Positions 17,409 to 47,601 of a stretch of 64,000 nt of DNA are shown piece after piece. Position 1 is the stretch's first letter; every line of letters starts with the position of its first letter. Under the pieces are notes generated by a model. The model searched no databases and was not told the origin of the DNA. It saw only the letters and a program-made list of their open reading frames with translations. Source of the DNA: Kiritimatiellia bacterium (GTDB lineage Bacteria; Verrucomicrobiota; Kiritimatiellia; RFP12; JBMNHG01); contig JBMNHG010000003.1 in the NCBI GenBank assembly GCA_050950285.1, forward strand, positions 1 to 64,000, given 5' to 3'. A program made the position numbers and the translations under genes.

Positions 17409-17473
17409 TTTTCTCAAACTTTCTTCAGGGGTATGCCGTTAGATGACACACCCTCTTTTATACACTGGTCGGC

Positions 17474-22819: not shown

Positions 22820-22999
22820 CTATGCTTGGCATTCATACGTCGTCACCCGCCGGCCGCAGTGGCGGCACTCCCGGCGGCGCAGCAGGCGGCCGCCCGGGGC
22901 ACGCCGGGTGTAGAGCACCCGGAAATGCCTGCAACCGCAGGCCGGACACGTGATTCCCCGGCTCTCGCTACGTTCTCCCGTCCTGTCCGCCGTGTCCAT
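22820..22999 (-). CDS. NrdR/Ogr-like Zn-ribbon protein
   Basis: CPACG...RRRECRHCGRRVTTYE; its ATG overlaps the terminase stop. Confidence 0.75.
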   Translation of the reverse strand: MDTADRTGERSESRGITCPACGCRHFRVLYTRRAPGGRLLRRRECRHCGRRVTTYECQA

Positions 23000-24919: not shown

Positions 24920-25292
24920 TTTACCCGTCAGATGAAGGTGGGCTTCCGCTGGGAGGCGGGGCGAGTGGTTGACGCAGAATGATCGACGGGGCGGTCAGGC
25001 GACCTGCTTCGTGCCCAGGATCATCGCTTCCACGTCAGCCTTGGTTCATGGCCTCATCACTCGCAGCAGGGACAGCACGAAGAACAGGCGAACGGCCCGA
25101 CAAAGGCGACGTACAGGACGGGCGAGACAGCCAGTCCAAAGACGGTCCCATGGGGGTCGTTCGTCCCAGCGCCGTGAGACAGTCACAGCACGGCCAGGGC
25201 GGACACAGCCGTCAAGCACCCGAATACGACGTTTCCGAAGTGGTTCATCGTGTTCCCATGATGTTAGGCAGGAGGTGTGCTAGGACGCAGAA

Positions 25293-27014
25293 CTACTCGT
25301 CATCTGCACGCTTACGTTCAACAGGGCTGACGACAACAGCCGTGAACTTCCATAGCCCGTTTGTCTGAACAACGGCAATGTCGTATTTCTCGTTCCTGGT
25401 CATCTTTCCACGGGATGAACTTACCACTGCGACGATTTGCGTCGGCGACGTTTCAGGAATAGCTTGAAAGCTCTCCAGCTTGAATTTGCCAAACCCTGCC
25501 TTCCTGAATGCCTCCTCGATATCGCGCGATTTCTCGTCTGAAATCTCGGTCTCGTCCTCAACCCCGGCAATGGCTTTCTTCGCCTGGGAAGTGAGATAGA
25601 ACAAGTAGTCCTTCAGATTTCCCTGAGCGTTGCTCCTCAGGAAACCGAGGAACGCCTTCTGCGGCGTCGAGCAGTCTCGATGGGGCAGGGTCTTCGTCAA
25701 CTCGGGGGTGATGTCCTTGCCCAGGATCGAGTCTGCCGTCGCGGGTTCTCCAGCAGACACCCAACCGACAGGGCTCGCGATAGCGATCATCAACACGACA
25801 CTGAACTGCAGAGCATTTACCATGTTCCACCTGACTTCACGACGTTGGTCCGCCCCGTTGTCGCCGGTCGCGTCCAGCGGATCGAGCCCGTAATGCACCT
25901 CCCATCCGTCGGGAAGCCCGTCTCCGTCCGAGTCGGCATTCAGCGCGGATGTGCCGTGAACGAAAAGCTCGGCAGAGTCGGACAGGCCGTCTCCATCGGT
26001 ATCCCAGTTGTGGGGATCGGTGCCGTAGAGCCGCACTTCGCGGCCGTCGGGGATGCCGTCGCCGTCGCTGTCATGGTGCGTCCAGGCGTCGTAGAAGCGC
26101 GTCACGCGGTTCGTCGATACCGCATCCACCCAGACCACGCGATTAGTTTGCATGTCCAGCGTGAGGGTGTCGGCGAGCGCCCAGTCCCTGGCGCAGAGGT
26201 CGGTGCAGGCGAAGATGTCGACGACATTCGTGCTCAGTCCTTCGTCCGGCCAGGCCAGCGTCAATCCGATGGTGCCGTTGGGGGTCGTGCCGATGGCCGT
26301 GAGCTGGAGATTCGAGACGCTGCCGCCCTCCTCGCCGAAGCGCATCATCGCGGCGGCCTCCCGCTCCTTTGCCAGCCGCGCGGCTTCGATGGAACGCGCC
26401 CGGACGTACTCGATCAGGTTGTCCTCGCCGACCAGCAGGTCGTAGCGCATACAGACGCGGGCGGGATCGTAGCAGGCGGTCAGCCAGTCCCGCCGCCACT
26501 CGTCGTAGGTGTCAAGCGCCGGGTATAGGGCGCGGACGAACCATTCCGGCGAATAGTCCCAGTCGCGCCCGATCCGGGCGATGACCTTCTGCTCCAGGCT
26601 TTCGATGACGATCTCGCGCCCCGGACTGCCCGCGTCCTCGTATATCCAGACCCGAAAGCGCACCACGCCGTCCGCGCCGATCTCGCCCGCGAGGCTGTCG
26701 ATGAAGGAGGCCGGGAAGGCTTTCAGGTCGAGGATGGGGAACGTCTCGCCAGGCTGAAAGAGGATGAAATCGGGGTCGGGCGGCGATATCCAAAGATAGA
26801 GTTCCTGATGCATGAGGAAGCGTTCAGCCAGGTCCTGCAAGCCGGTCGCCTGCCGTTCGACAAGACCCCGATGCAGCCGCCAGTTGTAGATATCCTCGGC
26901 ATTCTCGTCCTCCCCGAGCAGCGCCGCTACGACCCATGTGGCGCAGGCCATCGCAAGGGCCAAAGGCAGAAGCCGGAATCGCCGCGATTTCAGCAGGAAT
27001 CGCATCGAATGCAT
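25293..27014 (-). CDS. Polymorphic-toxin paralogue 1: conserved N-terminus fused in frame to an immunity-like ORF (toxin domain deleted)
   Basis: Matches paralogues 2 and 3 up to ...DPLDATGDNGAD (~25848), then runs into a second signal peptide MVNALQFSVVLMIAIA (ATG at 25823). Confidence 0.7.
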   Translation of the reverse strand: MHSMRFLLKSRRFRLLPLALAMACATWVVAALLGEDENAEDIYNWRLHRGLVERQATGLQDLAERFLMHQELYLWISPPDPDFILFQPGETFPILDLKAFPASFIDSLAGEIGADGVVRFRVWIYEDAGSPGREIVIESLEQKVIARIGRDWDYSPEWFVRALYPALDTYDEWRRDWLTACYDPARVCMRYDLLVGEDNLIEYVRARSIEAARLAKEREAAAMMRFGEEGGSVSNLQLTAIGTTPNGTIGLTLAWPDEGLSTNVVDIFACTDLCARDWALADTLTLDMQTNRVVWVDAVSTNRVTRFYDAWTHHDSDGDGIPDGREVRLYGTDPHNWDTDGDGLSDSAELFVHGTSALNADSDGDGLPDGWEVHYGLDPLDATGDNGADQRREVRWNMVNALQFSVVLMIAIASPVGWVSAGEPATADSILGKDITPELTKTLPHRDCSTPQKAFLGFLRSNAQGNLKDYLFYLTSQAKKAIAGVEDETEISDEKSRDIEEAFRKAGFGKFKLESFQAIPETSPTQIVAVVSSSRGKMTRNEKYDIAVVQTNGLWKFTAVVVSPVERKRADDE

Positions 27015-27100
27015 CCCTCCGAATGAACCAGCAGACTCAGGGGCACAGAATCCTAATAATTCTGCGTGTATGCGAATCGTTGAAGATGATTACGGAAACT

Positions 27101-27652
27101 CTATCGGGCAGATTCAGAACTAGGGGCAAGCCTCGCTGGTGTCGAACGTTCGGCAGGCTCTACCACCACCCACTTCATTTTCCGATCAACGCGCACCAAG
27201 TCGGAACGTGCAACTAGTTCCAAGCCTTCCGAGTTGTAGCGATACTTATGGACCGAGCGAAGTCCACCTTGCCCAGGGTGACGCCATCGCACCAGTATCT
27301 CGGCCTCGTTTGCACCCGGCAGCACGTCAATACCTTCGAGCACCGGAACGACACCTTTAAGGTTTGTGTCTGCCTCTCGAAGCAAGCGAAGAGAACCTTC
27401 CGAGGCGGCAGATGCGAAGTCGACCAAAGTCCCCTCATTCCCTCTTTTGCGATAGATAAGAATGTGTAAATCGGTTTGACCTTCAATGCTTACGATCTGT
27501 TCATCGGAAAAAACATACGGCCCTTCCCAAGATTGATGTGCCCGTACTGTCATTTCTTCGCGATCAATGATGCGCGTTGGATTCTGCGCGTAAATGAACT
27601 CGGACAACGCGAAGAGCACAAGAGCGGTCACAGTGTATAAGCGGGTGTTCAT
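27101..27652 (-). CDS. Exported protein, putative immunity protein for paralogue 2
   Basis: Signal peptide MNTRLYTVTALVLFALSEFIYA; starts 8 bp after the toxin stop; AT-richer like the toxin tip. Confidence 0.65.
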   Translation of the reverse strand: MNTRLYTVTALVLFALSEFIYAQNPTRIIDREEMTVRAHQSWEGPYVFSDEQIVSIEGQTDLHILIYRKRGNEGTLVDFASAASEGSLRLLREADTNLKGVVPVLEGIDVLPGANEAEILVRWRHPGQGGLRSVHKYRYNSEGLELVARSDLVRVDRKMKWVVVEPAERSTPARLAPSSESAR

Positions 27653-27660
27653 GGTCTCTC

Positions 27661-30231
27661 CTAGTCTATTTCGCCGCATACGATATCAACGTAGGCGCGA
27701 TGTGTGTCTCGGATTTGCCAGCTACCTGGTTCGGTGGGGGTTTTGTTCTTCCAGTAAATCACCCACAAGGCTGCACCATTGTAGCGCTGAATGGTGCATG
27801 CATCGATAGGTGTCCGATCTGTTCCTTTTCGGAAATCCACCCCATTAAATGTGAAGATGTAATTTTCAAGCGGCATGCCAGGTTCTTCGGCCTGTTGCTG
27901 CGCCTCCTGATTGGCTATCCACGCCACTGCGGCCGTGCGACATGGATTGGCAAGATGAGCTTTCCCATCAGCAATATTCTGCTTCCAATTCCAAAGTGCC
28001 TCATCACTCGGCGGGGGATCGAGTTGCATTATCCCCCATCCATTCGGAGCTCCGAAATTGGGGCAATGCTTGAAGTCGGCGGGGTTGGGCCCAAGAGTGC
28101 CAACCTCGTTGAACTGAATATATGTGCGACCGTTCTGGGTGCCTGACTCATGCCGAGCAATGGGTATTGCGTACCACGGATTGTTCCCGATTTCAGCTTC
28201 TGCTGCTGCTTCCGTTGGATTGTTCCCCCTGATATGAAATACGTGTTCGAACTCCAGACCCTGATATTCGCAGTAAAGAGTCGCCTTCCCGCCTCGGAAG
28301 TCCGCTGCAAACTCATCCGCGATATTCCAAACTTCTCCTGCTAAAAGCGTTTTCCAAGATGCTGCCGTCGGCCCTGGGTAATACGCATCATCATTTCGCG
28401 GGTTCCGTTTGTATTCGATGTGAAGCCGCCACTTGGCATTTCCCGGCAAGTTGGCTGGTTTGAGGGCCGCCGTGATCTGTGGCATTTGAGGTGTAGAGTT
28501 GATGTAAACATAGCCATTATCGTTGACGATGTTTGCCCCATCCTTTAACTCAACTTCAAGGACATCCACAAATGCCGCCGCCGTGATCTCGGCATAGGCG
28601 TCGGTATGGTACAACCCGTCGGCGGTATCGTACCGCAGCCGGACCGAACCGTTACTCCAGAACCAGACATTGGTGGTGGCCTGTTCGTCGACCATCGCGC
28701 AGCCGTTGCCGTTGTTGTGCCCTTCAAAGAAAGGGAGTTCCGACTGAAGCTCGGTGGCGGTATAGGCACGGACGGACACCTTGTCGTACCCGGAGTTGTG
28801 GTCCTCCACCCGGCCTTCGACGGTGAGCGAAAGCAGATAGCCGCAATGCATGAGCGGGCCGACACTGAAGATGTCTTCGATTTCCTGCCGGTTCGGATTG
28901 GTTCCGCCGCAGTTTTCCGAGTCCTCGACGTCCACCCGCAGGCTTGAGGTTCCCCGGCAGTGCATCAGGCGATGGATCAGCTGAGTCGCGTTGATGGCCG
29001 GATTGGCGGGGTCGCCGCCCATTTGGAATTCCTGAAGATTGGTGAACCCGTCGCCGTCGGGGTCGCCGTCCGCCCCGTTGTCGTCGGTCGCGTCCAGCGG
29101 ATCGAGTCCGTACTGGACCTCCCAGCCGTCGGGAAGCCCATCGCCGTCCGAGTCGGCATTCAACGCGGAAGTGCCGTGAACGAAAAGCTCGGCAAAGTCG
29201 GACAAGCCGTCCCCGTCGGTATCCCAGTCGTGCGCGTCGGTGCCGTAGAGTCGCACTTCGCGTCCATCGGGAATGCCGTCGCCGTCGCTGTCATGGTGCG
29301 TCCAGGCGTCGTAGAAGCGCGTCACGTGGTTCGTCGAGTCCGCATCCACCCAGACCACGCGATTGGTCTGCATGTCCAGCGTCAGGGTGTCGGCGAGCAC
29401 CCAGTCCCTGGCGCAAAGATCGGTGCAGACGAAGATGTCGACGACGTTGGTGCTCAGTCCTTCGTCCGGCCAGGCCAGCGTCAGTCCGATGGTGCCGTTG
29501 GTGGTCGGGCCGATGGCCGTGAACTGGAGATTCGAGACGCTGCCTCCCTCGCCGGATCGCATCATGGCGGCGGCTTCCCGCTCCTCGGCCAGCCGCGCCG
29601 CTTCGATGGATCGCGCCCAGACGTACTCGATCAGGTTGTCCTCGCCGACCAGCAGGTCGTAACGCATGCAGACGCGGGCGGGATCGTAGCAGGCGCTCAG
29701 CCAGTCCCGCCGCCACTCATCGTAGGTGTCAAGCGCCGGGTACAGGGCGCGGACGAACCACTCCGGCGAGTACTCGCGGTCACGCCCGATCCGGGCGATG
29801 ACCTTCCGCTCCAGGCTCTCGATGACGATCTCGCGGCCCGGGCTGTCCGCGTCCTCGTATATCCAGACCGGGAAGCGCACCACGCCGTCCGCGCCGATCT
29901 CGCCCGCAAGGTTGTCGATAAAGGACGCCGGAAAGGCTTTCAGATCGAGAATGGGGATCGTCTCGCCGGGCTGAAAGAGGATGAAATCGGGGTCGGGCGG
30001 CGCGATCCAGAGATAACTCTCCTGATCCCTCAGAAAACGTTCGGCCAAGTCATGCAAGCCGGTCGCCTGGCGCTCTACAAGAACCTGATGCAGCCGCTGG
30101 TTGTAGATATCCTCGGCGTTCTCGTCCTCCCCGAGCAGCGCCGCGATGGCCCATGTGGCACAGGCCATCGCAAGGGCCACAGGCAGAAGCCAGAATCGCC
30201 GCGCTTCGAGCAGTTTTCGCATCGAATGCAT
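27661..30231 (-). CDS. Polymorphic-toxin paralogue 2: signal/TM, Ig-like domain, DxDxDG repeats, C-terminal lysozyme/lytic transglycosylase-like domain
   Basis: Start MHSMRKLL. DSDGDGIPDG/DTDGDGLSD repeats. C-terminus has IARHES...GWGIMQL...NIADG..HL...IQRYNG (SLT motifs). Confidence 0.75.
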   Translation of the reverse strand: MHSMRKLLEARRFWLLPVALAMACATWAIAALLGEDENAEDIYNQRLHQVLVERQATGLHDLAERFLRDQESYLWIAPPDPDFILFQPGETIPILDLKAFPASFIDNLAGEIGADGVVRFPVWIYEDADSPGREIVIESLERKVIARIGRDREYSPEWFVRALYPALDTYDEWRRDWLSACYDPARVCMRYDLLVGEDNLIEYVWARSIEAARLAEEREAAAMMRSGEGGSVSNLQFTAIGPTTNGTIGLTLAWPDEGLSTNVVDIFVCTDLCARDWVLADTLTLDMQTNRVVWVDADSTNHVTRFYDAWTHHDSDGDGIPDGREVRLYGTDAHDWDTDGDGLSDFAELFVHGTSALNADSDGDGLPDGWEVQYGLDPLDATDDNGADGDPDGDGFTNLQEFQMGGDPANPAINATQLIHRLMHCRGTSSLRVDVEDSENCGGTNPNRQEIEDIFSVGPLMHCGYLLSLTVEGRVEDHNSGYDKVSVRAYTATELQSELPFFEGHNNGNGCAMVDEQATTNVWFWSNGSVRLRYDTADGLYHTDAYAEITAAAFVDVLEVELKDGANIVNDNGYVYINSTPQMPQITAALKPANLPGNAKWRLHIEYKRNPRNDDAYYPGPTAASWKTLLAGEVWNIADEFAADFRGGKATLYCEYQGLEFEHVFHIRGNNPTEAAAEAEIGNNPWYAIPIARHESGTQNGRTYIQFNEVGTLGPNPADFKHCPNFGAPNGWGIMQLDPPPSDEALWNWKQNIADGKAHLANPCRTAAVAWIANQEAQQQAEEPGMPLENYIFTFNGVDFRKGTDRTPIDACTIQRYNGAALWVIYWKNKTPTEPGSWQIRDTHRAYVDIVCGEID

Positions 30232-30288
30232 CTCTCTCAATGAACCAGCGGACTCAGGGCATAGACCCGCACGATCAAACACGAAGCC

Positions 30289-30317
30289 CTTGTACACAGA
30301 GGGAGCGGAATCGTCAA
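30289..30317 (-). promoter_or_regulatory. Putative sigma70 promoter for the toxin gene (equivalent at ~41203-41231)
   Basis: Minus strand TTGACG-N17-TACAAG; copy B has TTGACG-N17-TAAAAA. Confidence 0.45.
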
Positions 30318-30601
30318 GGATGGATTTGTCCGGCGAACTTTTTTCGCCAACCGTCCGCCACTTTCGCCCGCCGCCGGGTATGTATCTCGTAGAGGTGCGG
30401 CGAAGGGCGACCGGCGGTAAACCCGAAATAAGTTGTTCCGCTGGGAGCCCCCCCCTTACCTGTTGGATGCCGCTCGACAACCGGGAAAACGGGTACTGAA
30501 GCACTATATGTGTAACCAGCGGATGCCGCCAGTAAAGCCCTTTTGACCAGCCGATGTTTGAAGGCGACTCTCCGCATGGTGCGGAAATCTGGCGCACGGC
30601 C

Positions 30602-30632
30602 TTGACAATCGTAAGCACATCGGATATACATT
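30602..30632 (+). promoter_or_regulatory. Promoter of the AbrB/Doc pair (equivalent at ~41517)
   Basis: TTGACA-N17-TATACATT in both copies. Confidence 0.6.
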
Positions 30633-30658
30633 GTGTCATGACATGTAAGAGGTGAACC

Positions 30659-30886
30659 ATGATCAAGACACTGACCAAACACGGCAACAGCTACGCGATG
30701 GTGATCGACAAGCCGATCCTCGAGCTGCTCCACACCACGCCGGACACGCCATTCGAGATCATCTCGGACGGTCGCTCGCTCGTGCTGACGCCGGTACGCG
30801 ATGACGCGACCGGGAGGAAGTTCGACGCTGCCGTCGCCATGCTGCACAAGCGGTTCGGAAAAGCCATGAAGCGTCTGGCCGAGTAA
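30659..30886 (+). CDS. AbrB/MazE/SpoVT-family antitoxin, copy A
   Basis: LTKHGNSYAMVIDKPILELL...MKRLAE, directly upstream of a doc remnant. Confidence 0.88.
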   Translation: MIKTLTKHGNSYAMVIDKPILELLHTTPDTPFEIISDGRSLVLTPVRDDATGRKFDAAVAMLHKRFGKAMKRLAE

Positions 30887-30889
30887 TCC

Positions 30890-31067
30890 ATGGGCGCGCC
30901 CCTCTTTCTCAGTCTCTGGCCAAGTCATCCGCATCGTCTTCCTGGCGGTCAACGACATCGAGATCAAGGCGGACGAGGACAGCCTCGCGAGCCTGACGCT
31001 GGCGGTTGCCGATGGGAAATCCGGCAAACGCGAGATTGCCGGGTTCTTTCGCGCGCGCGCTCATTGA
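30890..31067 (+). pseudogene. Doc (death-on-curing) toxin with its centre deleted
   Basis: MGAPLFLSL is joined to IVFLAVNDIEIKADEDSL..LAVADGKSGKREIAGFFR; the Fic motif is absent. Confidence 0.75.
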
Positions 31068-31385
31068 GCGACACCCTTGGTGACTAACTCCACGGCAGCC
31101 CCGGCCTCGGTCGGGGCTGCCTCAGTCATGGACTCGAACTCAGAAGAGGCCGCACCGGATCGATTGGCCGCGTACACCGCTCGCGCGAAACCCATAGGCG
31201 TGGCGCTGCGGAGATGGCCGCGTTCGGGCGACGGCGGGAACCGGAGCGTCCAGTTGCCCGGCATCGGTTCGATCCGTTGTTTCGGGGGCATCACGAATCC
31301 GCCGCCACTCCACAGGCATGTCCGTTTCGCCCACGGGTCGCCGTAATCGCACGGATCGAACACATGGTCCGGCTTGCGGTCATGT
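31061..31385 (-). pseudogene. C-terminal fragment of a phage cytosine-methyltransferase-like gene
   Basis: RKPDHVFDPCDYGDPWAKRTCLW...RSATPMGFARAV. Confidence 0.5.
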
Positions 31386-31424
31386 TGCCGGTGAAATCGC
31401 AGAGGCTGAGGACGATGCCTTTCA

Positions 31425-32840
31425 TTATTCGGCCCCCTTAACCGGCGCTGCCGCATCAGGGCCTTCGCTGGTAACGTTCTCGTCACCAGTGATTGCTCCT
31501 GATAAAGAATCCTTTACCAGGAGTCTTTCGGCCTTCCTGCCCGTGAACTCCTCCCAGCGCTTCACGATCACGTCGCAGTACGGCGGGTCGAGTTTCATCA
31601 GGAACGCCCGCCTGCCGGTCTGCTCGCACGCGATCAGCGTCGAGCCGCTCCCGCCGAACAGGTCCAGGACATTCTGGCCCGGCAGCGACGAGTACTGGAT
31701 CGAACGCACCGCCAACTCGACGGGCTTCTCGGTCAGGTGGATCATCGCCTGCGGGCTGACCTTCTTGACGTGCCAGAGGTCCGTGGCGTTGTTGGGGCCG
31801 TAGTACTTGTGGCCCGCGCCTTCCTTCCAGCCGTAGAAGCAGATCTCGAACGCGCCCATGAAGTCCTTGCGCGTCAGCACTGGATGCTGCTTGTCCCAGA
31901 CGATCCCCTGGCTGAAGTAGAATCCGGCTGCGGCCAGCGGCGCGGGATAGTTGCCGATGTTGGCGTAGCCGCCCCAGATGTAGAACGAGCCGCCCGGCTT
32001 GAGCACCCGCGAGGCGTTGCCGAACCACGCCAGGAGCATCGCGTCGAATGCGTCGGCGGTCACGAAGTCGTTCTCGAGCGGGCGGTCCTTGGCCCGCATC
32101 TTCTTCCGAGCCTTCTTCGGATCGACCACGCCCCGCGCCTGGTCGAAGCCCTGGTGGTGGGCGATCTTCTGCCAGTCCCGACCCCACGCGCCGCTCGTGC
32201 CCGCCGCAATGGCCGTGGCGCTGCGCGGCTCGACCTTGACGTTGTACGGCGGGTCCATGTTCACGAGGTCGATGGTCGCGCCGTCGAGCAGGCGGTCGAG
32301 GTCCTCGACGCTCCCGCTGTCGCCGCACATCAGGCGGTGGTTGCCGAGCACCCAGACGTCGCCGCGCTGGGTGACGGGCGTGTCCGGCGGTTCCGGCACA
32401 TGGTCGGGATCGGTGAGCCCCTCGGCCACGTCGCCGTCGAGCAGGTGCGCCAGTTCCTCCTCGCCAAATCCCAGCAGGCTCAAGTCGTAGTCGGCCCGCT
32501 GGAGGTCCTTCAGCTCGATAGGCAGCAGCTCGAAGTCCCACTCGGCCAGCGTCGCGGTCTGGTTGTCGGCGATCCGGTACGCCTTGACCTTCTCCGGCGG
32601 CAGATCGGTCGCCACATGAACCGGCACCTGGGCCAGGCCGAGCTTCTTCGCCGCCTTCCAGCGGGTGTGCCCGACGATGATGACGCCCTCGGCGTCAACC
32701 ACGATGGGCTGGCGGAACCCGAACTCCTTCAGGCTGGCCGCCACGGCGTCCACCGCGTCGTCGTTGACGCGCGGGTTGCCGGGATAGGGTTTGATGGCCT
32801 CGATAGGCCGCAATTCGACATCGAACGTCCTGGTCGTCAT
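31425..32840 (-). CDS. ParB-N domain plus N4/N6 DNA methyltransferase (prophage type)
   Basis: PYPGNPR..IIVGHTR (ParB); DPPY; HLTEKPVEL; VLDLFGGSGST. Confidence 0.9.
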   Translation of the reverse strand: MTTRTFDVELRPIEAIKPYPGNPRVNDDAVDAVAASLKEFGFRQPIVVDAEGVIIVGHTRWKAAKKLGLAQVPVHVATDLPPEKVKAYRIADNQTATLAEWDFELLPIELKDLQRADYDLSLLGFGEEELAHLLDGDVAEGLTDPDHVPEPPDTPVTQRGDVWVLGNHRLMCGDSGSVEDLDRLLDGATIDLVNMDPPYNVKVEPRSATAIAAGTSGAWGRDWQKIAHHQGFDQARGVVDPKKARKKMRAKDRPLENDFVTADAFDAMLLAWFGNASRVLKPGGSFYIWGGYANIGNYPAPLAAAGFYFSQGIVWDKQHPVLTRKDFMGAFEICFYGWKEGAGHKYYGPNNATDLWHVKKVSPQAMIHLTEKPVELAVRSIQYSSLPGQNVLDLFGGSGSTLIACEQTGRRAFLMKLDPPYCDVIVKRWEEFTGRKAERLLVKDSLSGAITGDENVTSEGPDAAAPVKGAE

Positions 32841-33174
32841 GGTCTCATCTCCTCGTGCGTTGTGGGTTGAACTGAACAAGCGGACACTGAAAACAAACTT
32901 TGCCTATGCTCGGAGCTGTTCCCGCCGCCATCAGGAGGCTCCTGGGCCGCCAAGTACCTATTCTGGAGTTTCACCTTTTCACCCACCCTCACACGTACAC
33001 GCGCAAAAACACGCGGGCGGGCATCGTGCGCGGGGGTATGGGTGAATAGGTGAAACATGAAGAGAGAGTTGTTGTTTTCCTTTATATTTAGCGCTTTTAC
33101 GCGTTTCCCAAGTTTCACCCTGCGGGGGTGAATCTTGGGTGAACCTTGGGGAATCTTCAGCGGGGTCAGGGCGT

Positions 33175-33810
33175 TCATGTTTCACCCCCCGGTGAAGTTT
33201 CACCCTGGAGATTCACCCCTCCCGCCAAGCGGTACGAGCGAATCGGCCAGCCCGGTTTGGCTGTGGTCGAGATCTCGATGTCTCCCTGCTGGACGAGCGT
33301 CTCGATCAGCATGGAGAAGCTCTTCGAGTCCATCTTCATGCGCTTGAGGAGCACGCTGTGCGGCAACTCCCCGCCTGGCGCGGCACGCAGCTTCTCCACC
33401 GCCTTGAGGCATTCGGCATGGAACGGGTTGTCGGCAACGTGACCTGCCGCCATGAACAGCATCCGCCTGGTCTGGTGCATGACGAACGCGGACGCCCACT
33501 CGACGGCGGCCAGGCCGATGCGCGGGGCGAGGTGGTCCTCGCTGACGGCGTAAAGGAGCGCCAGCTTGCGGGTCTGCTCGCTGACACGTCCCCAGACCGT
33601 GGTGCCGACCGAATCGCCTTTGGCCTCGGCGGCCGTGTATTCGGCCTCGGCCTGCTCGCGGCACGCAATCAGCCGCCGCCTGGCCTCGTCGGTGTGGTCG
33701 ATCACCGTGGGCACTGGGGTCCAGTTCTCCAGGTTGCCCGTGCCCGGGCGGTAGTCGGCCCACCACTTGGCCGCCGCGAGCACGCTTGGCGGCAGATCCC
33801 GGATGATCGG
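33175..33810 (-). pseudogene. C-terminal fragment of a phage primase/helicase-associated (DUF3987-like) protein
   Basis: WGRVSEQTRKLALLYA..AVEWA..wHTH tail; no 5' part. Confidence 0.55.
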
Positions 33811-33903
33811 CCATCCTCGAAGCGGCCTTGAAATACGGGATTGATTTTGCGATCATGCTGTCCCACGCATCAAATCACCTGCTGACATATGGAAAAAGCA
33901 TTC

Positions 33904-34806
33904 ATGGGAACGAACAAAAGACGGACGCGGGCGCAGGATCCGCTGCTGGCGGAGATCGAGCGGGAACTCGGCCTGGGCCGATTCATCCGCTACGGGGACA
34001 TGTTCGATTTCGTCGCCGGTCTTGAGCAGGTTGAGCAGAAGCTGGCGACGCTGGTTTCCGGCGGAAACGCCGAACGCGCGGTGGGCCTTTATGAGGCTTT
34101 TCTAGCCGGTTGCTACGAGAAGATCGAGGAATGTGACGATTCCGGCGGCTACCTGGGCATGTTCTGGGACGACCTTTTTTGCGGATGGGTAAAAGCGCGA
34201 CAGGCGGCAGGGCGTCCGTCCTCCGAAACGGTTCAGCAGATCCTGAAGTGGCAAGAGCGCGATGACTACGGCTTCTGCTACGACATCGAAAAGGATGTGG
34301 CGAAGGTTCTGAATCCGGAGGCGTATGAAGCGCTTGTTGCGCATTACCGCAAGACGGTCGAGAACGGTCTGGCCGGTCTTTCGGGTCAGAAGCCCTGCGC
34401 GATCTTCGAATACGACAACAGCATCCGGCTTCCGGCCATGACACTGAAGGAAATGTACCGGGCGCGCGGAGATATTGCGTCGTATGCGGCGGTGTGCGAG
34501 CGGGACGACGCGGCGGCCGCGAAGCTGTACCGGGCGATGGGGTTTCGCATCCTGAATGCCAAGAAGAGCAAATACTACGAGAACGCCCTCGCGAACTTCG
34601 AGAACGCCCGCGATCTCTATAGGAAAGCGGGGCTGGAAAGCGAATGGGCCGCGCTGGTGGAGACCGTTCGGGCTGAACACGCGCGGAAATACGGTTTCAT
34701 GCCGGGCTTTGAGAAAATCACCTCGGGCGGGTCCCTCGAGGGGCCTTCCTTTGCCGAGCGCGCAAGAGCCCGATGGGCCAGGCAGATGGGAACTGGAGGC
34801 TCTTGA
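33904..34806 (+). CDS. Helical hypothetical protein (SWIM-associated type), probably internally deleted
   Basis: DDSGGYLG and RILNAKKSKYY..AL motifs; abrupt join at AVCER|DDAAAAKLYR. Confidence 0.5.
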   Translation: MGTNKRRTRAQDPLLAEIERELGLGRFIRYGDMFDFVAGLEQVEQKLATLVSGGNAERAVGLYEAFLAGCYEKIEECDDSGGYLGMFWDDLFCGWVKARQAAGRPSSETVQQILKWQERDDYGFCYDIEKDVAKVLNPEAYEALVAHYRKTVENGLAGLSGQKPCAIFEYDNSIRLPAMTLKEMYRARGDIASYAAVCERDDAAAAKLYRAMGFRILNAKKSKYYENALANFENARDLYRKAGLESEWAALVETVRAEHARKYGFMPGFEKITSGGSLEGPSFAERARARWARQMGTGGS

Positions 34807-34834
34807 GCAACATGAAGACCGTGCGAGACAACCC

Positions 34835-36397
34835 ATGAACAAACAGCATTTCAGGCCGGCCGGTCCTCCCGGCAGGGGCGACAAGTACCTGCGCGATGTC
34901 GCGCGTGACGTGCAACGCGCGATCCGGGCCGCCCAGCACGACTATCATGACGAGTCGCTCCGGTTGCGCCCGGCGGACCTTGCGGAACTGAGCCTCATTC
35001 TGGCGGAATTCGCCGAGGACCTGCACAACGACATCGGCATCTGGCGAACGTTCGAAGACTACAACCGGCAGTGGTTCGGAGTCCCGCTGCCGATTGCGGA
35101 GGGATGTGAAGGCGCGGATGGCGCCGTAATCACCGCCGACCGGGTCCGCCATCTGCTCTGGGTGCTGTTTGCGGTTCTGAACCCCGATCTGACCTTGGGA
35201 CCGGAACATCCCGACTTGCAATATCTCGCCGAAGCCGCGGCGAATGCGCTGGCGGCGCGCATGTCGCCCATTCCACGCGATTCGGGCGTAAAACGTTTTC
35301 TGGACACCCCCAACGAGCATGGGTGGGATATCAAGAAGAAGCTCGTTTGGCTCGGAACCCGGTCCTATCTTTTCCGCACAGCCTGCCGTCAATACCTCGC
35401 CGAACAGGAGGCGGACGTTGGGAACGACAAGATTGGGCCTACGGACGACTTCATCTGCCAGGAATGTACGCAGTGGTCGGGCCTCGGCGTCCTGGATGTT
35501 CTGGCCGGGGTCCTGCCGCTGACGGCGGACCAACGCGTCACGTTGCGCGGCTGGCACGAGCGCCATGCCGCGTTGTACCGGATAGACGCGGCGGAGGCGG
35601 ACGTCCTGGAGGTTACGAATCTGATCAGCGATCGGCCTTACCGGGTCATGATGGGCTCGGGGCCACAGCCGTTCCGGCCGGGCTCCATGGTTTTCGGCAG
35701 CCTCGTTCCCTGGGGGGACTACTGGTATTGGTCTGGGGCGCAGCGACAATACCCGGCCATGGACGCTGCCGCGGTCGAAGACATTCGGCAATCGATGATC
35801 GCCCGCTCGCCGTCCATCGTCTATCGTTACCGCAAGGACTTGTTGGCCCAGGCCGTGGCCGGCAACGAACGGCAATATCGGGAGTTCCTCGATTACCACG
35901 GGGGCAAGCAACTGGTCGTGTATCCGGATGGCCTGAGCATGGCCGCCGACGAACAGCGGCGATTCCGGCTGATGTACGAGGCGCGGTCCCGGAAGGACGT
36001 TGACCGGGTCATGGCGGAGCGGGGCCTGAAAAACCCCTGGCCGAACATGAAGTATCCGGACCACATCCTGAACTGTGTGAACGGAATCGGATTGCACTAC
36101 GATCCTCAACAAGGCGTGGAGATGATGGCCAACTTCAACGACGTGGCGGGCGGGTTCGCCAAGCAGGGCCGCGAGTTGACCGAGAACGAAATGGAGGCCA
36201 TCCGGGCCTTCATCCAGTCGCACTCGATATCGCCCTCGTTCGTCCGAAGTATCGTGCGGGAGCATGGCGATGCGTCCGCCCGCGCCGCATTCCTGCTGCG
36301 GGACCGGGGCCGGGCCTATGCGCTTGAGTACCTTTTGAGGCGGTACAAGGGATCCGCGTTTCGCAAGGTCTACCCGAACATGTCCATCGTGCCGTGA
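34835..36397 (+). CDS. Hypothetical protein (DUF3843-like)
   Basis: 520-aa ORF with WLGTRSYLFR and EYLLRRYKG motifs. Confidence 0.55.
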   Translation: MNKQHFRPAGPPGRGDKYLRDVARDVQRAIRAAQHDYHDESLRLRPADLAELSLILAEFAEDLHNDIGIWRTFEDYNRQWFGVPLPIAEGCEGADGAVITADRVRHLLWVLFAVLNPDLTLGPEHPDLQYLAEAAANALAARMSPIPRDSGVKRFLDTPNEHGWDIKKKLVWLGTRSYLFRTACRQYLAEQEADVGNDKIGPTDDFICQECTQWSGLGVLDVLAGVLPLTADQRVTLRGWHERHAALYRIDAAEADVLEVTNLISDRPYRVMMGSGPQPFRPGSMVFGSLVPWGDYWYWSGAQRQYPAMDAAAVEDIRQSMIARSPSIVYRYRKDLLAQAVAGNERQYREFLDYHGGKQLVVYPDGLSMAADEQRRFRLMYEARSRKDVDRVMAERGLKNPWPNMKYPDHILNCVNGIGLHYDPQQGVEMMANFNDVAGGFAKQGRELTENEMEAIRAFIQSHSISPSFVRSIVREHGDASARAAFLLRDRGRAYALEYLLRRYKGSAFRKVYPNMSIVP

Positions 36398-36564
36398 ACA
36401 GCCGGACCCGCCGCCCGGATCGTGGCATCGGCGACTTGGGACACGTCCGCGCCAACGGCGACGAGTTCAACGACGTCTCGCCATTTTCGCGTTCGCGGCA
36501 GTTGTCCAAGTCGGATGTGTCCCACGCGTCACCCCATCATGTTGCCCCATCGAAGATGCCACAT

Positions 36565-37615
36565 CTATTGCTCCTCGAATCCGAACGTGTCGAAACGCAG
36601 CGTGCGGCAGTTCTCGGTGACGTCCCGGATGGTCTTCTCCGTCGCTCCGTCAGGAATCTCGGCACGGATTTCCAGGGTTACCTCGACGTTGGCTCCGACA
36701 TGCTTCGACAGGTGTTGAATGACCTCGTCGGCGATGCGGCTTGCGTCCCGTCCGACCCGCAGCGAATCAAGCTGCACCGATCCGTGGAACCGCCGGTAGG
36801 TGGCTACGACCGGCTGCGTAGGCGGCGTTACGGCATCGGTTCTGCCCGTTGTGTTCGTGCCGGTTGTCTGGCCCTGTTCACCAGTGCGCTCGCCCTGCCA
36901 GGCCGGGTGCTTGTCGCGGTCGAGAATCTGGTCGGCCATGTCGCCAGGCCGGATGACCGTGCAGGGCATGATGCCAGAAATCTTCTGCCCCGGCCCGGCC
37001 AGGTTCAGGATCGCGCCGTTCAGGGTCTCCATGCGGGCCCGCACCTGCATGTCGCTGCGGGCCGACTCGTAGGTCTGCGGGTCGTCGAGCACCACCAGCG
37101 ACGGGCGCACCGCCCGACCGTCGGCACGCTTGAACTTCATGCCGCGAATCCGGCTCTCGATTCCCGCCACGCGGATGATCGTACCCGACGCCTTGCTGCC
37201 CGGAATCGTCGGCAGCACGATCTCGTCCGCCGTCCAGACAATGCGCGTGGGCTTGCCGCCGCAGAGCTGGCCCTTGGCCCGGTTGTGAATCCGCTCGAGC
37301 GCGTGGATCGGGAAGACCGCCTCGGGGAAATCGTCGAGCAGCCGCTCGTTGGTCTCGAACTCGACCTTGATGCTCTCCAGCATGCTGCGGGCATGCCCGG
37401 CGTCCGAGCCGATCAGGCAGACGAACTGCTGGGCCCCGGTCAGCATCGCCCAGATGCAGGCCGTCTCCGCCAGCGTGGTCTTGCCGCTGCCGCGCGGCAT
37501 CGCCATCGCAAACAGTCCGCCGCGCAGCACGGCGGTCTCGATCTTGGCGATCACCTTCAGGTGGTCGGGCGACCACGGCAGGCTGAAGGTCTCGGGGAAG
37601 TAGGCCTCGCAGAAG
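36565..37615 (-). pseudogene. Second GpA terminase fragment fused in frame to the C-terminus of a DUF499-type AAA ATPase
   Basis: Terminase sequence up to HPAWQGERT (~36883), then RFHGSVQLD..RVGRDASRIADEVIQHL..VTLEI.AEIPDG..ENCRTLRF. Confidence 0.75.
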
Positions 37616-37843
37616 CTTACCCGTCTGAAGAAGGCGGCGTTCCGCTGGGAGGCGGGGCGGGTGGTTGACGCGAGGTGACCGAGTTCCGGCGCGAGGCCGT
37701 GCCGTTTATGAGACCGGCTGAGTGCCTAGGATCATCGATTCCAATTCCTTCACATCCGCCCCATCGCCAAGGCGGGTCACTCCATCCATTCCGAGATGGC
37801 AAATGGCTGACTCCAATGTTCACCGCCGGGGAGAACTTGGCGC

Positions 37844-38707
37844 TCAAGGGCGAGGGGTGCGCCACGACTCAGTCGCTGCCTCCTCAGCCGAAGAAGGGCC
37901 CAGTTGTTGGGTACGGTGCGACGGTTGACGATCCCCGCCTATAATTCGACCCCGCATTGACCAGTCATACACATTGCTCGATAGCACATTCCCAGTATAG
38001 TCACGGCGTATATTGAGCCATGTCTGTCCCTCAAGCCTTCTTGCATATTCGACACACGATTTGTCCTGGTGATTCCGGAAAATCTCATGCTTGTCTTTCC
38101 ACCAAAACTTGCGCAGGGTTCCATCAAGGTCGAACTGCGCTTCAAAGCTGCGCACATCATCTCTCTCCAGCATCGCCGCATCCGCAAAGACAACGGCTTC
38201 CACCGATCCGACCACACTATTTGTGCCATGCGGGAAGACTCGCCAAGTTGTTGACCGCGACCTATCCTCGGCAGTGAGCCAAATGGAAGGACCGTGGGTA
38301 TGAATCTGGTAGTGTCGGTCTTTCAGTATTCCATCGATAGCCAAGGTGGCATCCTGCACAACGGCCAGAATAGACTGCATCTCCGGCCCTGCAGCAGCCG
38401 TGATCGGCGCGACGGTAGTGAACGCAGACGGGACGGGGGGCGGCCGGCGCAACACATGAGCTTGGGTTGATGCTTCCGCTGTTTCCTGTCTTGACTGCTC
38501 GGCCACTGGCAATCGATCGCGTTCTGTCGGGCGCATTGAAAATGGAAAGGAGTCTGCCATCAAGCCATCGCTCACGGCTGGAGTCCCATTTCGTCGGCGG
38601 GGCTCGTTGACGTCTGCCTTTCGTGCCACGAAAAACAGCAAAGTCAGCAACACTGAAGCGGCCAACGTTGCGGCAGTAATTGTCACGCCTCGCTTCATAG
38701 AGATCAT
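37844..38707 (-). CDS. Membrane-anchored exported protein, putative immunity protein for paralogue 3
   Basis: N-terminal TM segment and Pro/Ala linker; starts 1 bp after the toxin stop; unrelated to the other immunity-like ORFs. Confidence 0.6.
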   Translation of the reverse strand: MISMKRGVTITAATLAASVLLTLLFFVARKADVNEPRRRNGTPAVSDGLMADSFPFSMRPTERDRLPVAEQSRQETAEASTQAHVLRRPPPVPSAFTTVAPITAAAGPEMQSILAVVQDATLAIDGILKDRHYQIHTHGPSIWLTAEDRSRSTTWRVFPHGTNSVVGSVEAVVFADAAMLERDDVRSFEAQFDLDGTLRKFWWKDKHEIFRNHQDKSCVEYARRLEGQTWLNIRRDYTGNVLSSNVYDWSMRGRIIGGDRQPSHRTQQLGPSSAEEAATESWRTPRP

Positions 38708-38708
38708 C

Positions 38709-41144
38709 TCAATGGTTGTTCAGCCATGCGGAAAATTCCCAGGGCGTACTCACGCCATCCGGGTCCATTGTATAAACGTAGACGATTTCGCCAATGCCAA
38801 TTGCATAGTCCGTGCAGTTGTAGTTGAAAAGGTGATACCAAGGAGGGCTGTCATCACTCGCCTTGACTTGGGATAGAGCGAATGCAAGAGGAGCAAACCG
38901 GATAGGATACATCTTCTGACCTGAAGGCCAGTGTGCATCGACAGCAGCAACCCCCAGACGCACATCACCAACACAGCTCGGATTGCCTGCTATCGAAGGC
39001 CAGAACCCAATATAGTCAATGTAGTCCCGATGCTCTTCAGGCACGAGTTCCTGCGCGAATGCATCCAGCGAGTACTGGCCCCAGCTGTGTCCAACTTCCA
39101 GATTCTGCAAATCGCCTTCATCCGCGAAGAGTCCAACTTTGGCATCGTAGACATAGACGGTGGTGGTGAACCCGACGTTCGTACCTCCGCACGAGAATGT
39201 GAATTCGGTTTTGGAGGGTCCGGCCTGGGTTGTGCGACTGACGTACCGGGTGAGTTTGTCTCCGCCACTGCCGCCCTGAAGGGACATGCAGTCGGGAAGA
39301 TCGCTTTCGTCCATGTTGGGACTGATCAGCGCGCGAACGACGACGGAATCAACGGGCCACTCCAGCGCTTGCGCGATCGGAACCACGAAAACACGCGTCC
39401 GGGGGTTGCCGTCGCCATCCTCAATCTCGTGGAGATTCGTCATAGCGTCAGGCTCGATGGCCAGGACCTCGAATGTAGACACCTCTGAAGCGGAAACGAT
39501 TTCGGCATAGGCGTCGGTATGGTACAATCCATCGCCGGTATCGTACCGCAGCCGGACCGAGCCGTTGCTCCAGAACCAGACGTTGGTGGTGGCCTGCTCG
39601 TCCACCATCGCGCAGCCGTTGCCGTTGTTGTGGCCCTCGAAGAACGGGACTTCCGACTGGAGTTCGGTGGCGGTATATGCCCGCACGGACACCTTGTCGA
39701 ACCCGGAATTGTGGTCCTCCACACGGCCTTCGACGGTCAGCGAAAGCAGATAGCCGCAGTGCATGAGCGGGCCGACGCTGAAGACGTCCTCGACTTCCTG
39801 CCGGTTCGGGTTGGTCCCGCCGCAGTTCTCCGAGTCCTCGACGTCCACCCGCAAGCTGGAGTCGCCCCGGCAGTGCATCAGGCGATGGATCAGCTGCGTC
39901 GCGTTGATGGCCGGGTTGGCAGGATCGCCGCCCATTTGGAATTCCTGAAGATTGGTGAACCCGTCGCCGTCGGGGTCGCCATCGGCCCCGTTGGCGCCGG
40001 TCGCGTCCAGAGGATCGAGCCCGTACTGCACCTCCCAGCCGTCGGGAAGCCCGTCGCCGTCCGAGTCGGCATTGAGCGCGGATGTGCCGTGAACGAAAAG
40101 CTCGGCAGAGTCGGACAGGCCGTCTCCATCGGTATCCCAGTTGTGGGGATCGGTGCCGTAGAGCCGCACTTCGCGACCGTCGGGGATGCCGTCGCCGTCA
40201 CTGTCATGGTGCGTCCAGGCGTCGTAGAAGCGCCTCACGCGGTTCGTCGATTCCGCATCCACCCAGACCACGCGATTGGTCTGCATGTCCAGCGTCAAGG
40301 TGTCGGCGAGCGTCCAGTCCCTGGCGCAGAGGTCGGTGCAGGCAAAGATGTCGACGACGTTGGTGCCCAGTCCTTCGTCCGGCCAGGCCAGCGTCAGTCC
40401 GATGGTGCCGTTGATGGTCGTGCCGATGGCCGTGAACTGGAGATTCGAGACGCTGCCTCCCTCGCCGGATCGCATCATGGCGGCGGCTTCCCGCTCCTCG
40501 GCCAGCCGCGCGGCTTCGATGGAACGTGCCCAGACGTATTGGATCAGGTTGTCCTCGCCGACCAGCAGGTCGTAGCGCATGCAGACGCGGGCGGGATCGT
40601 AGCAGGCGGTCAGCCAGTCCCGCCGCCACTCTTCGTAGGTGTCAAGTGCCGGGTATAGGGCGCGGACGAACCATTCCGGCGAGTACTCTTGGTCGCGCCC
40701 GATCCGGGCGATGACCTTCTGCTCCAGGCTTTCGATGACGATCTCGCGTCCCGGACTGTCCGCGTCCTCGTATATCCAGACCGGAAAGCGCACCACGCCG
40801 TCCGCGCCGATCTCGCCCGCAAGGTTGTCGATGAAGGACGCCGGAAAGGCTTTCAGATCGAGAATGGGGATCGTCTCGCCGGGCTGAAAGAGGATGAACT
40901 CGGGGTCGGGTGGCGATATCCAGAGATAGAGTTCCTGATCCCTCAGAAAGCGTCCGGACAGATCCTGGAGGTCGGTCGCCTGGCGCTCGAGGAGGGCATG
41001 GTGCAGCCACCGGTTGTAGATATCCTCGGCGTCTTCGTTCTCCCCGAGCATCGCCGCGACGACCCATGTGGCGCAGGCCATCGCAAGGGCCAAAGGCAGC
41101 AGCCAGAATCGCCGCGATTTGAGCAGGTAACGCATCGAATGCAT
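38709..41144 (-). CDS. Polymorphic-toxin paralogue 3: same N-terminus, C-terminal permuted papain-like (NlpC/P60-fold) domain
   Basis: Colinear with paralogue 2 up to DAYAEI (~39498). The tip has VGHSW...IGFWP...YHLFNYNCTDYA (His before Cys). Confidence 0.72.
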   Translation of the reverse strand: MHSMRYLLKSRRFWLLPLALAMACATWVVAAMLGENEDAEDIYNRWLHHALLERQATDLQDLSGRFLRDQELYLWISPPDPEFILFQPGETIPILDLKAFPASFIDNLAGEIGADGVVRFPVWIYEDADSPGREIVIESLEQKVIARIGRDQEYSPEWFVRALYPALDTYEEWRRDWLTACYDPARVCMRYDLLVGEDNLIQYVWARSIEAARLAEEREAAAMMRSGEGGSVSNLQFTAIGTTINGTIGLTLAWPDEGLGTNVVDIFACTDLCARDWTLADTLTLDMQTNRVVWVDAESTNRVRRFYDAWTHHDSDGDGIPDGREVRLYGTDPHNWDTDGDGLSDSAELFVHGTSALNADSDGDGLPDGWEVQYGLDPLDATGANGADGDPDGDGFTNLQEFQMGGDPANPAINATQLIHRLMHCRGDSSLRVDVEDSENCGGTNPNRQEVEDVFSVGPLMHCGYLLSLTVEGRVEDHNSGFDKVSVRAYTATELQSEVPFFEGHNNGNGCAMVDEQATTNVWFWSNGSVRLRYDTGDGLYHTDAYAEIVSASEVSTFEVLAIEPDAMTNLHEIEDGDGNPRTRVFVVPIAQALEWPVDSVVVRALISPNMDESDLPDCMSLQGGSGGDKLTRYVSRTTQAGPSKTEFTFSCGGTNVGFTTTVYVYDAKVGLFADEGDLQNLEVGHSWGQYSLDAFAQELVPEEHRDYIDYIGFWPSIAGNPSCVGDVRLGVAAVDAHWPSGQKMYPIRFAPLAFALSQVKASDDSPPWYHLFNYNCTDYAIGIGEIVYVYTMDPDGVSTPWEFSAWLNNH

Positions 41145-41573
41145 CTCTCCGAATGAACCAGCAGACTCAGGGGCACAGACCCGCATGATCGAACACGAAA
41201 CCCTTTTACATCAGAGGGCCGGAATCGTCAAGGACGGTTTTGTCCGGCGAACTTTTTTCGCCAACCGTCCGCCACTTTCGCCCGCCGCCGGGGATGTATC
41301 TCGTAGAGGTGCGGCGAAGGGCGACCGGCGGTAAACCCGAAATAAGTTGTTCCGCTGGGAGCCCCCCCCCTTACCTGTTGGATGCCGCTCGACAACCGGG
41401 AAAACGGGTACTGAAGCACTATATGTGTAACCAGCGGATGCCGCCAGTAAAGCCCTTTTGACCAGCCGATGTTTGAAGGCGACTCTCCGCATGGTGCGGA
41501 AATCTGGCGCACGGCCTTGACAATCGTACTCACATGGGATATACATTGTGTCATCCAAAGAGAGAGGCGCGCC

Positions 41574-41801
41574 ATGATCAAAACCCTGACCAAGCACGGC
41601 AACAGCTACGCGATGGTGATCGACAAGCCGATCCTCGAGCTGCTCCATACCACGCCGGAAACGCCGTTTGAGATTATCTCGGACGGCCGCTCGCTCGTGC
41701 TGACGCCGGTGCGGGATGACGCCGCCGAGAAAAAGTTCGACGATGCCGTCGCCATGCTGCACAAGCGGTTCGGCAAGGCCATGAAGCGACTCGCCGAGTA
41801 G
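41574..41801 (+). CDS. AbrB/MazE-family antitoxin, copy B
   Basis: Near-identical to 30659-30886. Confidence 0.88.
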   Translation: MIKTLTKHGNSYAMVIDKPILELLHTTPETPFEIISDGRSLVLTPVRDDAAEKKFDDAVAMLHKRFGKAMKRLAE

Positions 41802-41804
41802 TCC

Positions 41805-41948
41805 ATGGTCACACCGCTCTTTCTTGATCTCGACCAGATCATACGCCTGCACGGCGAACTGATTGCGCGCCATGGCGGGATCGACGGCACGCGCGACATC
41901 GGCCTGCTGCATTCCGCCATTGCTATGCCCCAGGCGTCCTACGGCGGC
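41805..41948 (+). pseudogene. Doc toxin 5' fragment
   Basis: LFLDLDQIIRLHGELIARHGGIDGTRDIGLLHSAIAMPQASYGG, then unrelated sequence. Confidence 0.8.
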
Positions 41949-47503: not shown

Positions 47504-47520
47504 ATCAAATCATCTCCTTG

Positions 47521-47599: not shown

Positions 47600-47601
47600 A
47601 T

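Follow-up and report, generated by a model that had tools for sequence, protein, structure and literature searches.

The 64,000-nucleotide stretch analyzed here, hereafter the window, is the start of contig C3 (JBMNHG010000003.1) of an uncultured Kiritimatiellia bacterium from sludge whose 4.05-Mb genome is 99.35% complete, and it carries three minus-strand genes for paralogous proteins with a common front part, or chassis, that are treated here as a candidate polymorphic toxin family. The paralogues are P1 (25293-27014; an open reading frame (ORF) of 573 aa), P2 (27661-30231; 856 aa from its ATG), and P3 (38709-41144; 811 aa), of which P2 and P3 are full-length toxin candidates. The last constant domain of the full-length proteins, a jelly-roll domain of 141 aa that ends in the motif DAYAEI (39498-39920 in P3), is referred to as the module, and the variable C-terminal part after DAYAEI as the tip. 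The constant region of P2 occupies 28585-30231 and its variable cassette 27661-28584 (307 aa); the variable cassette of P3 lies at 38709-39497 (262 aa). Directly downstream, on the same strand, are the immunity candidates P0004, behind P2 (27101-27679, 192 aa from the longest start), and P0005, behind P3 (37844-38707, 287 aa). P0005 starts 1 nt after the P3 stop codon, and for P0004 the longest start gives an overlap of 19 nt with P2, whereas the probable start at 27652 (MNTRLY) lies 8 nt behind it. A preliminary description of this DNA, made from its letters, had noted a different gene close behind each of P2 and P3, in agreement with this map.

Self-blastn of the window matched all three paralogues to one another at identities far above chance: P2 with P3 at 91.5% over 2351 bp (28585-30932 and 39498-41846), P1 with P3 at 92.2% (25849-27049 and 39982-41179), and P1 with P2 at 90.3% (25848-27042 and 29068-30259). 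The front shared by three paralogues that had been described earlier is therefore real, at 90-92% identity; P1 is truncated at aa 389 and is not the full paralogue it was taken for. P2 and P3 are colinear over 549 aa (92% identical) up to DAYAEI (28585/39498) and unalignable after it. In 150-bp steps, their nucleotide identity is 0.83-0.99 until ∼28684/39597 and 0.30-0.41 past 28543/39447, and because it collapses within those steps the switch at DAYAEI is abrupt, as the preliminary description had placed it after about 550 aa. The AT-richer C-termini were also confirmed: the GC content is 0.636 and 0.641 in the constant parts of P2 and P3, respectively, 0.518 and 0.553 in their tips, and 0.525 and 0.559 in the downstream genes.

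The chassis runs in the order hydrophobic leader, N-domain of no recognized family, immunoglobulin (Ig)-like domain, TSP3 repeats, and jelly-roll module. The leader of P1-P3 reads as a signal peptide or transmembrane segment. The N-terminal ∼190 aa had no relative of known function in the Atlas language-model look-up (best score 0.86, to unnamed clusters), and an Ig-like domain at aa ∼224-312 is suggested by weak Atlas structure rows alone. The only Pfam matches of P1-P3 were three TSP3_bac repeats, located at aa ∼315-385 (E about 1e-18), and NCBIfam gave only sub-threshold local matches over the same repeats, namely to MtsD and CglD, proteins of cohesion and gliding, at scores well under the cut-off. 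The module sequence had no match in Pfam or among Protein Data Bank (PDB) chains. The module and tip of P3, folded together from a 33-row alignment (predicted local distance difference test (pLDDT) 92.4; predicted template modeling score (pTM) 0.86), gave a model in three parts: an all-beta domain (residues 1-141), an Ig-like sandwich (about 145-265), and an alpha/beta domain (256-403). The module model resembles MAM-Ig structures (Foldseek 2c9a, E 5e-5; 8a1f, E 3e-5) and, in VIA structure comparisons, other jelly-roll binding domains (Z about 7). Its alignment has 27 invariant columns, including two Cys, a Glu-Asp (ED), a Tyr-Asp-Thr (YDT), and two His. An autoprotease role, considered for the conserved His, Cys, and Glu-Asp, was rejected, as the model is an all-beta jelly-roll like MAM and carbohydrate-binding module (CBM) domains with no protease fold; processing may still take place there. 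The module is rare, with 82 clusters at E ≤ 1e-3 and 35 at ≤ 1e-10 in an exhaustive phmmer search of 1.84 billion representatives, and in these it lies mostly at about aa 400-600 of proteins of 800-1100 aa.

The tip of P2 (model pLDDT 83.7) is predicted to consist of an Ig-like sandwich (tip aa 10-120) followed by a helical domain (tip aa 123-307). The sole matches of the helical domain in VIA were MltF (5aa1_A, Z 6.8), a salmon g-type lysozyme (4g9s_A, Z 6.6), and MltC (4c5f_A, Z 6.5). Glu146 of the tip (residue 695 of the protein) is invariant in 25/25 homologues, Ser147 is nearly so, and the motifs QFN and GWGxMQ are conserved; together with Glu146, we take these motifs to be GH23-like. With GH23 lysozyme-like enzymes the tip may have a fold in common; a Glu-Ser pair and a GxMQ-like motif are conserved in it, and its partner is predicted to be exported, as a periplasmic inhibitor would be. 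It differs from them in Z scores of only 6.5-6.8 and in the missing SLT match in Pfam. On the strength of the model, the tip may work like GH23 enzymes; membership of the family is not claimed. Its partner, P0004, begins with what looks like a signal peptide. Muramidase-type interbacterial effectors form the natural comparison group, as do pesticin-like bacteriocins, in which receptor and translocation parts are joined to a lysozyme and immunity is conferred by a periplasmic protein.

For the catalytic domain of the P3 tip, the best match among 48,161 chains in VIA was the Vibrio type VI effector TseH (6v98_A; Z 11.2, root-mean-square deviation 3.2, 128 aligned residues); the next row had a Z of 8.3, and further rows were permuted papain- or NlpC/P60-like structures (2wp7, 7zot, 2if6, 7zv6). 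His137 and Cys228 of the tip (residues 686 and 777 of the protein) are invariant in 14/14 homologues and stand in the model at the start of a strand (278) and of a helix (369), respectively, as in the papain-like fold. The language-model look-up returned TseH and IcsB_M clusters as weak leads (0.78-0.79). No useful match came from searching the two tip sequences against PDB chains, the profile search with the P3 tip being empty, and Foldseek on both tip models matched just the front Ig and jelly-roll parts, the catalytic domains being matched only in the wide VIA search. The part of PMC4453574 drawn on here reports that TseH of Vibrio cholerae acts from the periplasm to lyse cells and that TsiH, the product of the next gene, blocks it. 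With the TseH-TsiH pair described in that part, the P3 system appears to share the fold, the Cys-His signature, the periplasmic target, and an immunity gene immediately downstream; it differs in that the sequence identity is 12% and in that P3 sits on an exported chassis of 690 aa, whereas TseH is a small type VI secretion system (T6SS) cargo. The P3 tip may thus work like TseH, as far as the model goes, and is not claimed as a member of that family. P0005 is predicted to have an N-terminal membrane anchor followed by an exported domain. Because both tips resemble peptidoglycan hydrolases, the action outside the cytoplasm that had been proposed earlier gains support from the structural models.

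The P3 stretch is present in 20 run rows from 13 studies of digesters, bioreactors, and wastewater, and both cassettes, that of P2 and that of P3, are identical there. Parts of P3 are matched by contigs from three metatranscriptome libraries; one interval within the tip (38764-38992) is covered with 0 differences, and one contig (38342-38853) spans the boundary of P0005 and P3. These contigs hint weakly at transcription of P3, with carry-over of DNA a possible source, and the parts of P3 that they leave uncovered are no evidence of silence.

Tip diversity on one chassis is high. A word-index search with the constant 549 aa recovered proteins 76-100% identical in their front parts and 771-944 aa long. 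Eight tip classes were counted among the 11 closest relatives (front 56-100% identical) and 14 among 22 module-bearing proteins; the C-termini are thus not invariant, in keeping with the polymorphic reading of the preliminary description. Named tips on the chassis were DUF6973, PAD, and a zincin-like HELGH end, and another tip had a weak Ntox44 match. A first locus search with the full-length chassis alignment was swamped by generic TSP3 repeats (80 loci, mostly matching at aa ∼310-410, many of them archaeal), and the query was rebuilt from the module alone. A module profile scan of the fetched loci then gave 36 module-bearing frames, of which 26 were complete and 20 distinct; by their last 180 aa, the short tips of the 26 complete ORFs fell into 13 classes. 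Among 401 genomes of the phylum, the P2-type tip occurred in 13 and the P3-type tip in eight, in frames of 291 to 2113 aa.

Partner genes were coupled to the tips at most of these loci. A following ORF with a strongly hydrophobic stretch in its first 40 residues, starting between -43 and +18 nt, was found at 23/26 complete and 17/20 distinct loci, the three loci without one being L003, L110, and L111, and a leader-bearing ORF followed the tip in 7/7 P2-like and 4/4 P3-like complete homologues of the phylum genomes. No partner cluster was common to two tip classes. Two of the three non-identical pairs with the same tip class also share a partner: P2 and its counterpart at L108 (tips 63-69% identical, P0004 homologue 52%) and L098 with L100 (tips 48%, partners 31%), and not L109 with L112. 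P2 and L126 are likewise alike in both parts (tip 48%; P0004 homologue 26%, E 3e-13).

Tip and partner also travel together onto other scaffolds. At L139 of the same genome (G000:C2:801500-814300), two paralogues of 1266 and 1192 aa have a scaffold without the module or any Pfam family; they share an N-terminus, differ in their C-termini, and are each followed by a leader-bearing ORF, and they constitute a second polymorphic family of this genome. One of them ends in a TseH-like tip that is 65% identical to that of P3; a P0005 homologue (43%) overlaps its gene by 4 nt. Behind these genes lie an extra P0005-like copy (G000:C2:811137-811846) and tip-like fragments, the latter read by eye. In a genome of another genus of the same class, L141 (G291:C7:87962-91903) combines a P3-type tip (94% identical) in a 478-aa frame with a P0005-like partner (82%), which suggests, on sequence grounds, that the cassette was recently transferred laterally to another kind of front.

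P1 is the exception among the paralogues. Its homology to P2 and P3 stops at aa 389 (25848-27014), so that the last repeat, the module, and any tip are missing; from there the frame stays open into an ORF of 176 aa that has a Met (25823) and a hydrophobic leader of its own. An intact counterpart with module and tip, P0012, is 94% identical to P1 in its front part. As judged from sequence, P1 is a deletion derivative or decayed copy. The 176-aa C-terminal ORF had no homologue at any fetched locus or elsewhere in the genome, and that it is an orphan immunity gene is a guess.

From these observations, P2 and P3 are probably exported toxins with periplasmic immunity partners that exchange cassettes at the end of the module. 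The constant front would serve as a delivery and adhesion chassis, with calcium-binding TSP3 repeats and a MAM/CBM-like jelly-roll as the obvious surface-binding candidates. The swappable cassette would consist of an Ig-like linker and a peptidoglycan-cutting enzyme, lysozyme-like of the GH23 type in P2 and a TseH-like Cys-His hydrolase in P3, which would be Sec-exported and released by the producer and would enter the periplasm of a target cell to act as a toxin there. By binding the enzyme in the periplasm of the producer, the downstream exported or membrane-anchored protein would neutralize it and shield sister cells. Tip and immunity gene, as one cassette, would recombine at the end of the module and move among scaffolds and genomes, partly via temperate phages, and P1 would be a deletion derivative that keeps just a possible orphan immunity gene.

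This interpretation has close relatives among known systems. The part of Zhang et al. 2012 (PMC3482391) drawn on here already lists, as a category, Sec-exported polymorphic toxins, assigned to the type II secretion system (T2SS), with lineage-specific N-terminal domains (MafB-N, MicroscillaN, APD1/2), which may carry adhesion domains such as laminin-G. P2 and P3 are like the toxins described there in their putative signal peptide, lineage-restricted N-terminus, variable C-terminal candidate toxin domains, immunity candidate directly downstream, and apparent cassette exchange by recombination. They differ in that their N-domain, TSP3 block, and module are absent from the leader and pre-toxin domains listed in that part of the source, with no Pfam or NCBIfam model, and in that the swapped cassette includes an Ig-like linker and the immunity candidates are predicted to be exported rather than cytoplasmic. 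What is new is therefore the chassis and the module; the principle of Sec-dependent polymorphic toxins has already been recognized. Among the open-access papers covered by the literature search, none paired 'polymorphic toxin' with 'Kiritimatiellae', none was returned for 'DUF6973', and none in a set of 34 contained 'TSP3'.

No RHS repeats and no PAAR/VgrG, TPS/FHA, LXG/WXG, MafB-N, or MuF leader domains were found by Pfam in P1-P3, so the earlier statement that such hallmarks are missing is correct for these proteins. The conclusion drawn from it, that they may form a distinct class, is not supported, both because the Sec-dependent category is listed in PMC3482391, in the part considered, and because the family is linked to Rhs toxins in three ways. 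The module follows directly after a signal peptide and precedes an RHS-repeat protein of ∼1,700 aa at L003, L103, L105, and L121; two Rhs giants of this genome contain internal matches to the Ig and TSP3 stretch; and a fourth paralogue (43% identical, with a LamG-like end; L089, G000:C2:941000-951600) lies directly upstream of a 2065-aa transglutaminase-DUF6531-RHS gene. Small RHS-repeat ORFs also occur at L089. By these three links the chassis is part of a local repertoire of Sec-type toxin leaders, and the chassis protein of L089 may be an accessory of the Rhs toxin. P2 and P3 differ from Rhs/YD toxins in that the tip is joined directly to the module, with no Rhs shell around it. They are like the phage-borne MuF toxins, in the part of Zhang et al. 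2012 drawn on here, in that their cassettes lie beside prophage terminase and capsid genes, and differ in having no MuF domain and in a signal-type leader that argues for Sec export and not for packaging in the phage head. With 117 RHS_repeat matches over many long frames and 0 matches to the type VI sheath VipB/TssC, the genome appears to have many Rhs proteins that could not travel as T6SS cargo; it also has six secretins.

Several points weigh against reading P2 and P3 as toxin and immunity pairs. There is no evident route over the outer membranes of producer and target, nor do dedicated secretion genes lie alongside; release via a type II-like system, vesicles, or phage lysis is possible. 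It is the hydrophobic N-terminus alone that argues for export of P2 and P3, and the leader could instead stay uncleaved and anchor the protein in the envelope of the cell that makes it. Neither tip had a Pfam match up to E 10, whether to SLT or any other family for P2 or to TseH (PF25218) or NLPC_P60 for P3, and the GH23 likeness of the P2 tip is middling, with alignments of 119-121 residues and Z scores within the common range. Partner homology was lost for tips below about 45% identity; L109 and L112 had a weak tip match and no partner match, and partners were unrelated in 6/7 P2-like and 3/4 P3-like genome homologues. The co-variation of downstream gene and tip that had been proposed earlier is upheld in the coupling at 17 of the 20 loci, in the pairs that share both tip and partner, and in the absence of any partner cluster across tip classes; below ∼45% tip identity, partner homology is not detectable. 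Finally, the N-domain chassis also bears C-termini of a non-toxin flavor (LamG-like, Calx-beta, FG-GAP, and RCC1) and is by that token a general exported chassis.

These last C-termini, together with the adhesion-type domains of the chassis itself (Ig, TSP3, and the MAM/CBM-like jelly-roll), the faint NCBIfam resemblance to MtsD and CglD, far below cut-off as it is, and a genome scan that found no delivery machine, would also fit exported hydrolases that are not weapons and serve in envelope remodeling, cohesion, or scavenging of wall debris, the downstream genes then encoding inhibitors or chaperones for the producer only. We regard this explanation as unlikely, since fast replacement of tips on a 90% identical chassis, cassettes of low GC, and movement of tip plus partner from one scaffold or genus to another mark conflict systems rather than housekeeping ones. 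Orphan tip and partner fragments, as read by eye, lie behind L139; the closest structural match, TseH, is a proven antibacterial effector, and the module is common to Rhs toxins.

A role in phage lysis is raised by the surroundings, which are a mosaic of prophage remnants and defense genes. Downstream of P1 lies a terminase large subunit gene (22999-24858, minus strand; Pfam GpA_nuclease 1.4e-28, PHROG terminase large subunit 8e-30), and a truncated second copy (36565-37554, minus strand) lies downstream of P0005, with 36884-37671 being 95% identical to 24188-24975. Both full cassettes, as well as P1, are thus upstream of terminase large-subunit genes, a further point against the toxin reading. 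On a 6.8-kb IMG/VR contig (locus L081), capsid/cement genes and a tail gene flank, and run opposite to, a chassis that is 91% identical, carries a DUF6973 tip, and is accompanied by two leader-bearing ORFs. Lysis genes precede terminase genes in many phages, and signal-arrest-release (SAR) endolysins have an N-terminal anchor; P2 and P3, whose tips both look like peptidoglycan hydrolases, could on these grounds be oversized signal-anchored endolysins, with spanin- or holin-like proteins encoded downstream of them. This is very unlikely, however. A 550-aa chassis with TSP3 repeats and a jelly-roll, in proteins of 811-856 aa, does not resemble known endolysins; sister proteins with this chassis bear PAD, DUF6973, and other non-lytic tips; the same tips are also found on scaffolds other than phage ones, PKD and Rhs-type proteins among them; it is the tip, not the host, with which partners co-vary; and the orientation of the cassette on the viral contig, opposed to the structural genes, is that of cargo. 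P2, P3, P0004, and P0005 had no match among PHROG lysis families. Among 58 neighbor ORFs of 19 more distant family loci, PHROGs identified no phage head, tail, or terminase family (0/58), and two transposases and two DNA polymerases; a general phage linkage of the family was rejected on this count. Because the distant loci lack phage structural neighbors, phages are best seen as an occasional vehicle and not as part of the mechanism.

That the genes are decaying cargo, duplicated by repeated prophage insertions and no longer expressed, is the least probable explanation of all, in spite of the truncated P1, the one truncated terminase copy, and the IS91 copies and toxin-antitoxin remnants around them, given that P2, P3, and both partners are intact long ORFs without stops, that identical cassettes recur in the 20 run rows of 13 studies, and that contigs from RNA libraries match the P3 tip exactly.

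Taking P2 and P3 as exported toxins, a bolder and rather doubtful extension is that the constant region is a self-contained delivery device of bacteria of the Planctomycetes-Verrucomicrobia-Chlamydiae (PVC) group, which would be exported by Sec, bind a glycan or receptor of a competitor, and carry a folded hydrolase over its outer membrane, in the manner of colicins but built of unrelated parts; signal-peptide Rhs toxins would use this module as well, and the device would be spread, and perhaps released on lysis, by temperate phages. In Kiritimatiellia and other PVC bacteria, which digesters and sediments commonly harbor and which, in this genome, show no detectable type VI system, weapons used between bacteria have hardly been explored. 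The family offers a rare defined chassis, two tips whose chemistry can be predicted, and a pair of putative periplasmic immunity proteins, so that the toxin and antidote claim can be tested in Escherichia coli with simple constructs. Its confirmation would raise the questions of how a Sec-exported wall hydrolase leaves a diderm producer and reaches the periplasm of a diderm target, and of whether the module, shared with Rhs toxins, is the part responsible; the phage linkage would add a cargo for competition carried by temperate phages outside the well-studied phyla.

The repeat shared by P2 and P3 continues ∼700 bp upstream of their start codons and contains a divergent MazE/AbrB-like antitoxin gene, at 30659-30886 (plus strand) near P2 (Pfam MazE_antitoxin 1.3e-4, below the cut-off) and, as a second copy with a weak match also below the cut-off, at 41577-41801 (plus strand) near P3. 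The latter is followed by a Fic/Doc-like remnant (41805-∼41950, plus strand), again a weak match below the cut-off. An apparent conserved upstream gene, with minus-strand ORFs of 233 aa at P3 and 237 aa at P2, was discarded as spurious; it is Arg-rich and has the plus-strand MazE-like ORF inside. A 78-bp direct repeat (36447-36524 and 42414-42491; 95% identical) brackets a block made up of the terminase fragment, P0005, P3, and the antitoxin remnant, and may have been left behind by a recombination event that duplicated the P3 block.

Further neighbors in the window include a ParB-methylase, a primase fragment, Fic genes, and restriction systems. A defense island at 42502-53208 (minus strand) comprises genes for a ResIII helicase, a PD-(D/E)XK nuclease, an N6_N4 methylase, a Schlafen/AlbA_2-Fic-like protein, an SNF2 helicase, and an Mrr-type endonuclease; beyond it, two 600-bp repeats (53243-53829 and 55141-55742) are 87.6% identical. 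Three IS91-family transposase genes (Y2_Tnp plus Zn_Tnp_IS91), 94-98% identical, lie at 5805-7498, 9420-11112, and 17416-19109, with a companion ORF of 166 aa in two of the three copies and a longer repeat between 8572-11119 and 16568-19113. In an arrangement resembling a composite transposon with defense cargo, IS91 copies bracket a gene for a 1415-aa fused T5orf172-ResIII-Eco57I methylase (12167-16414).

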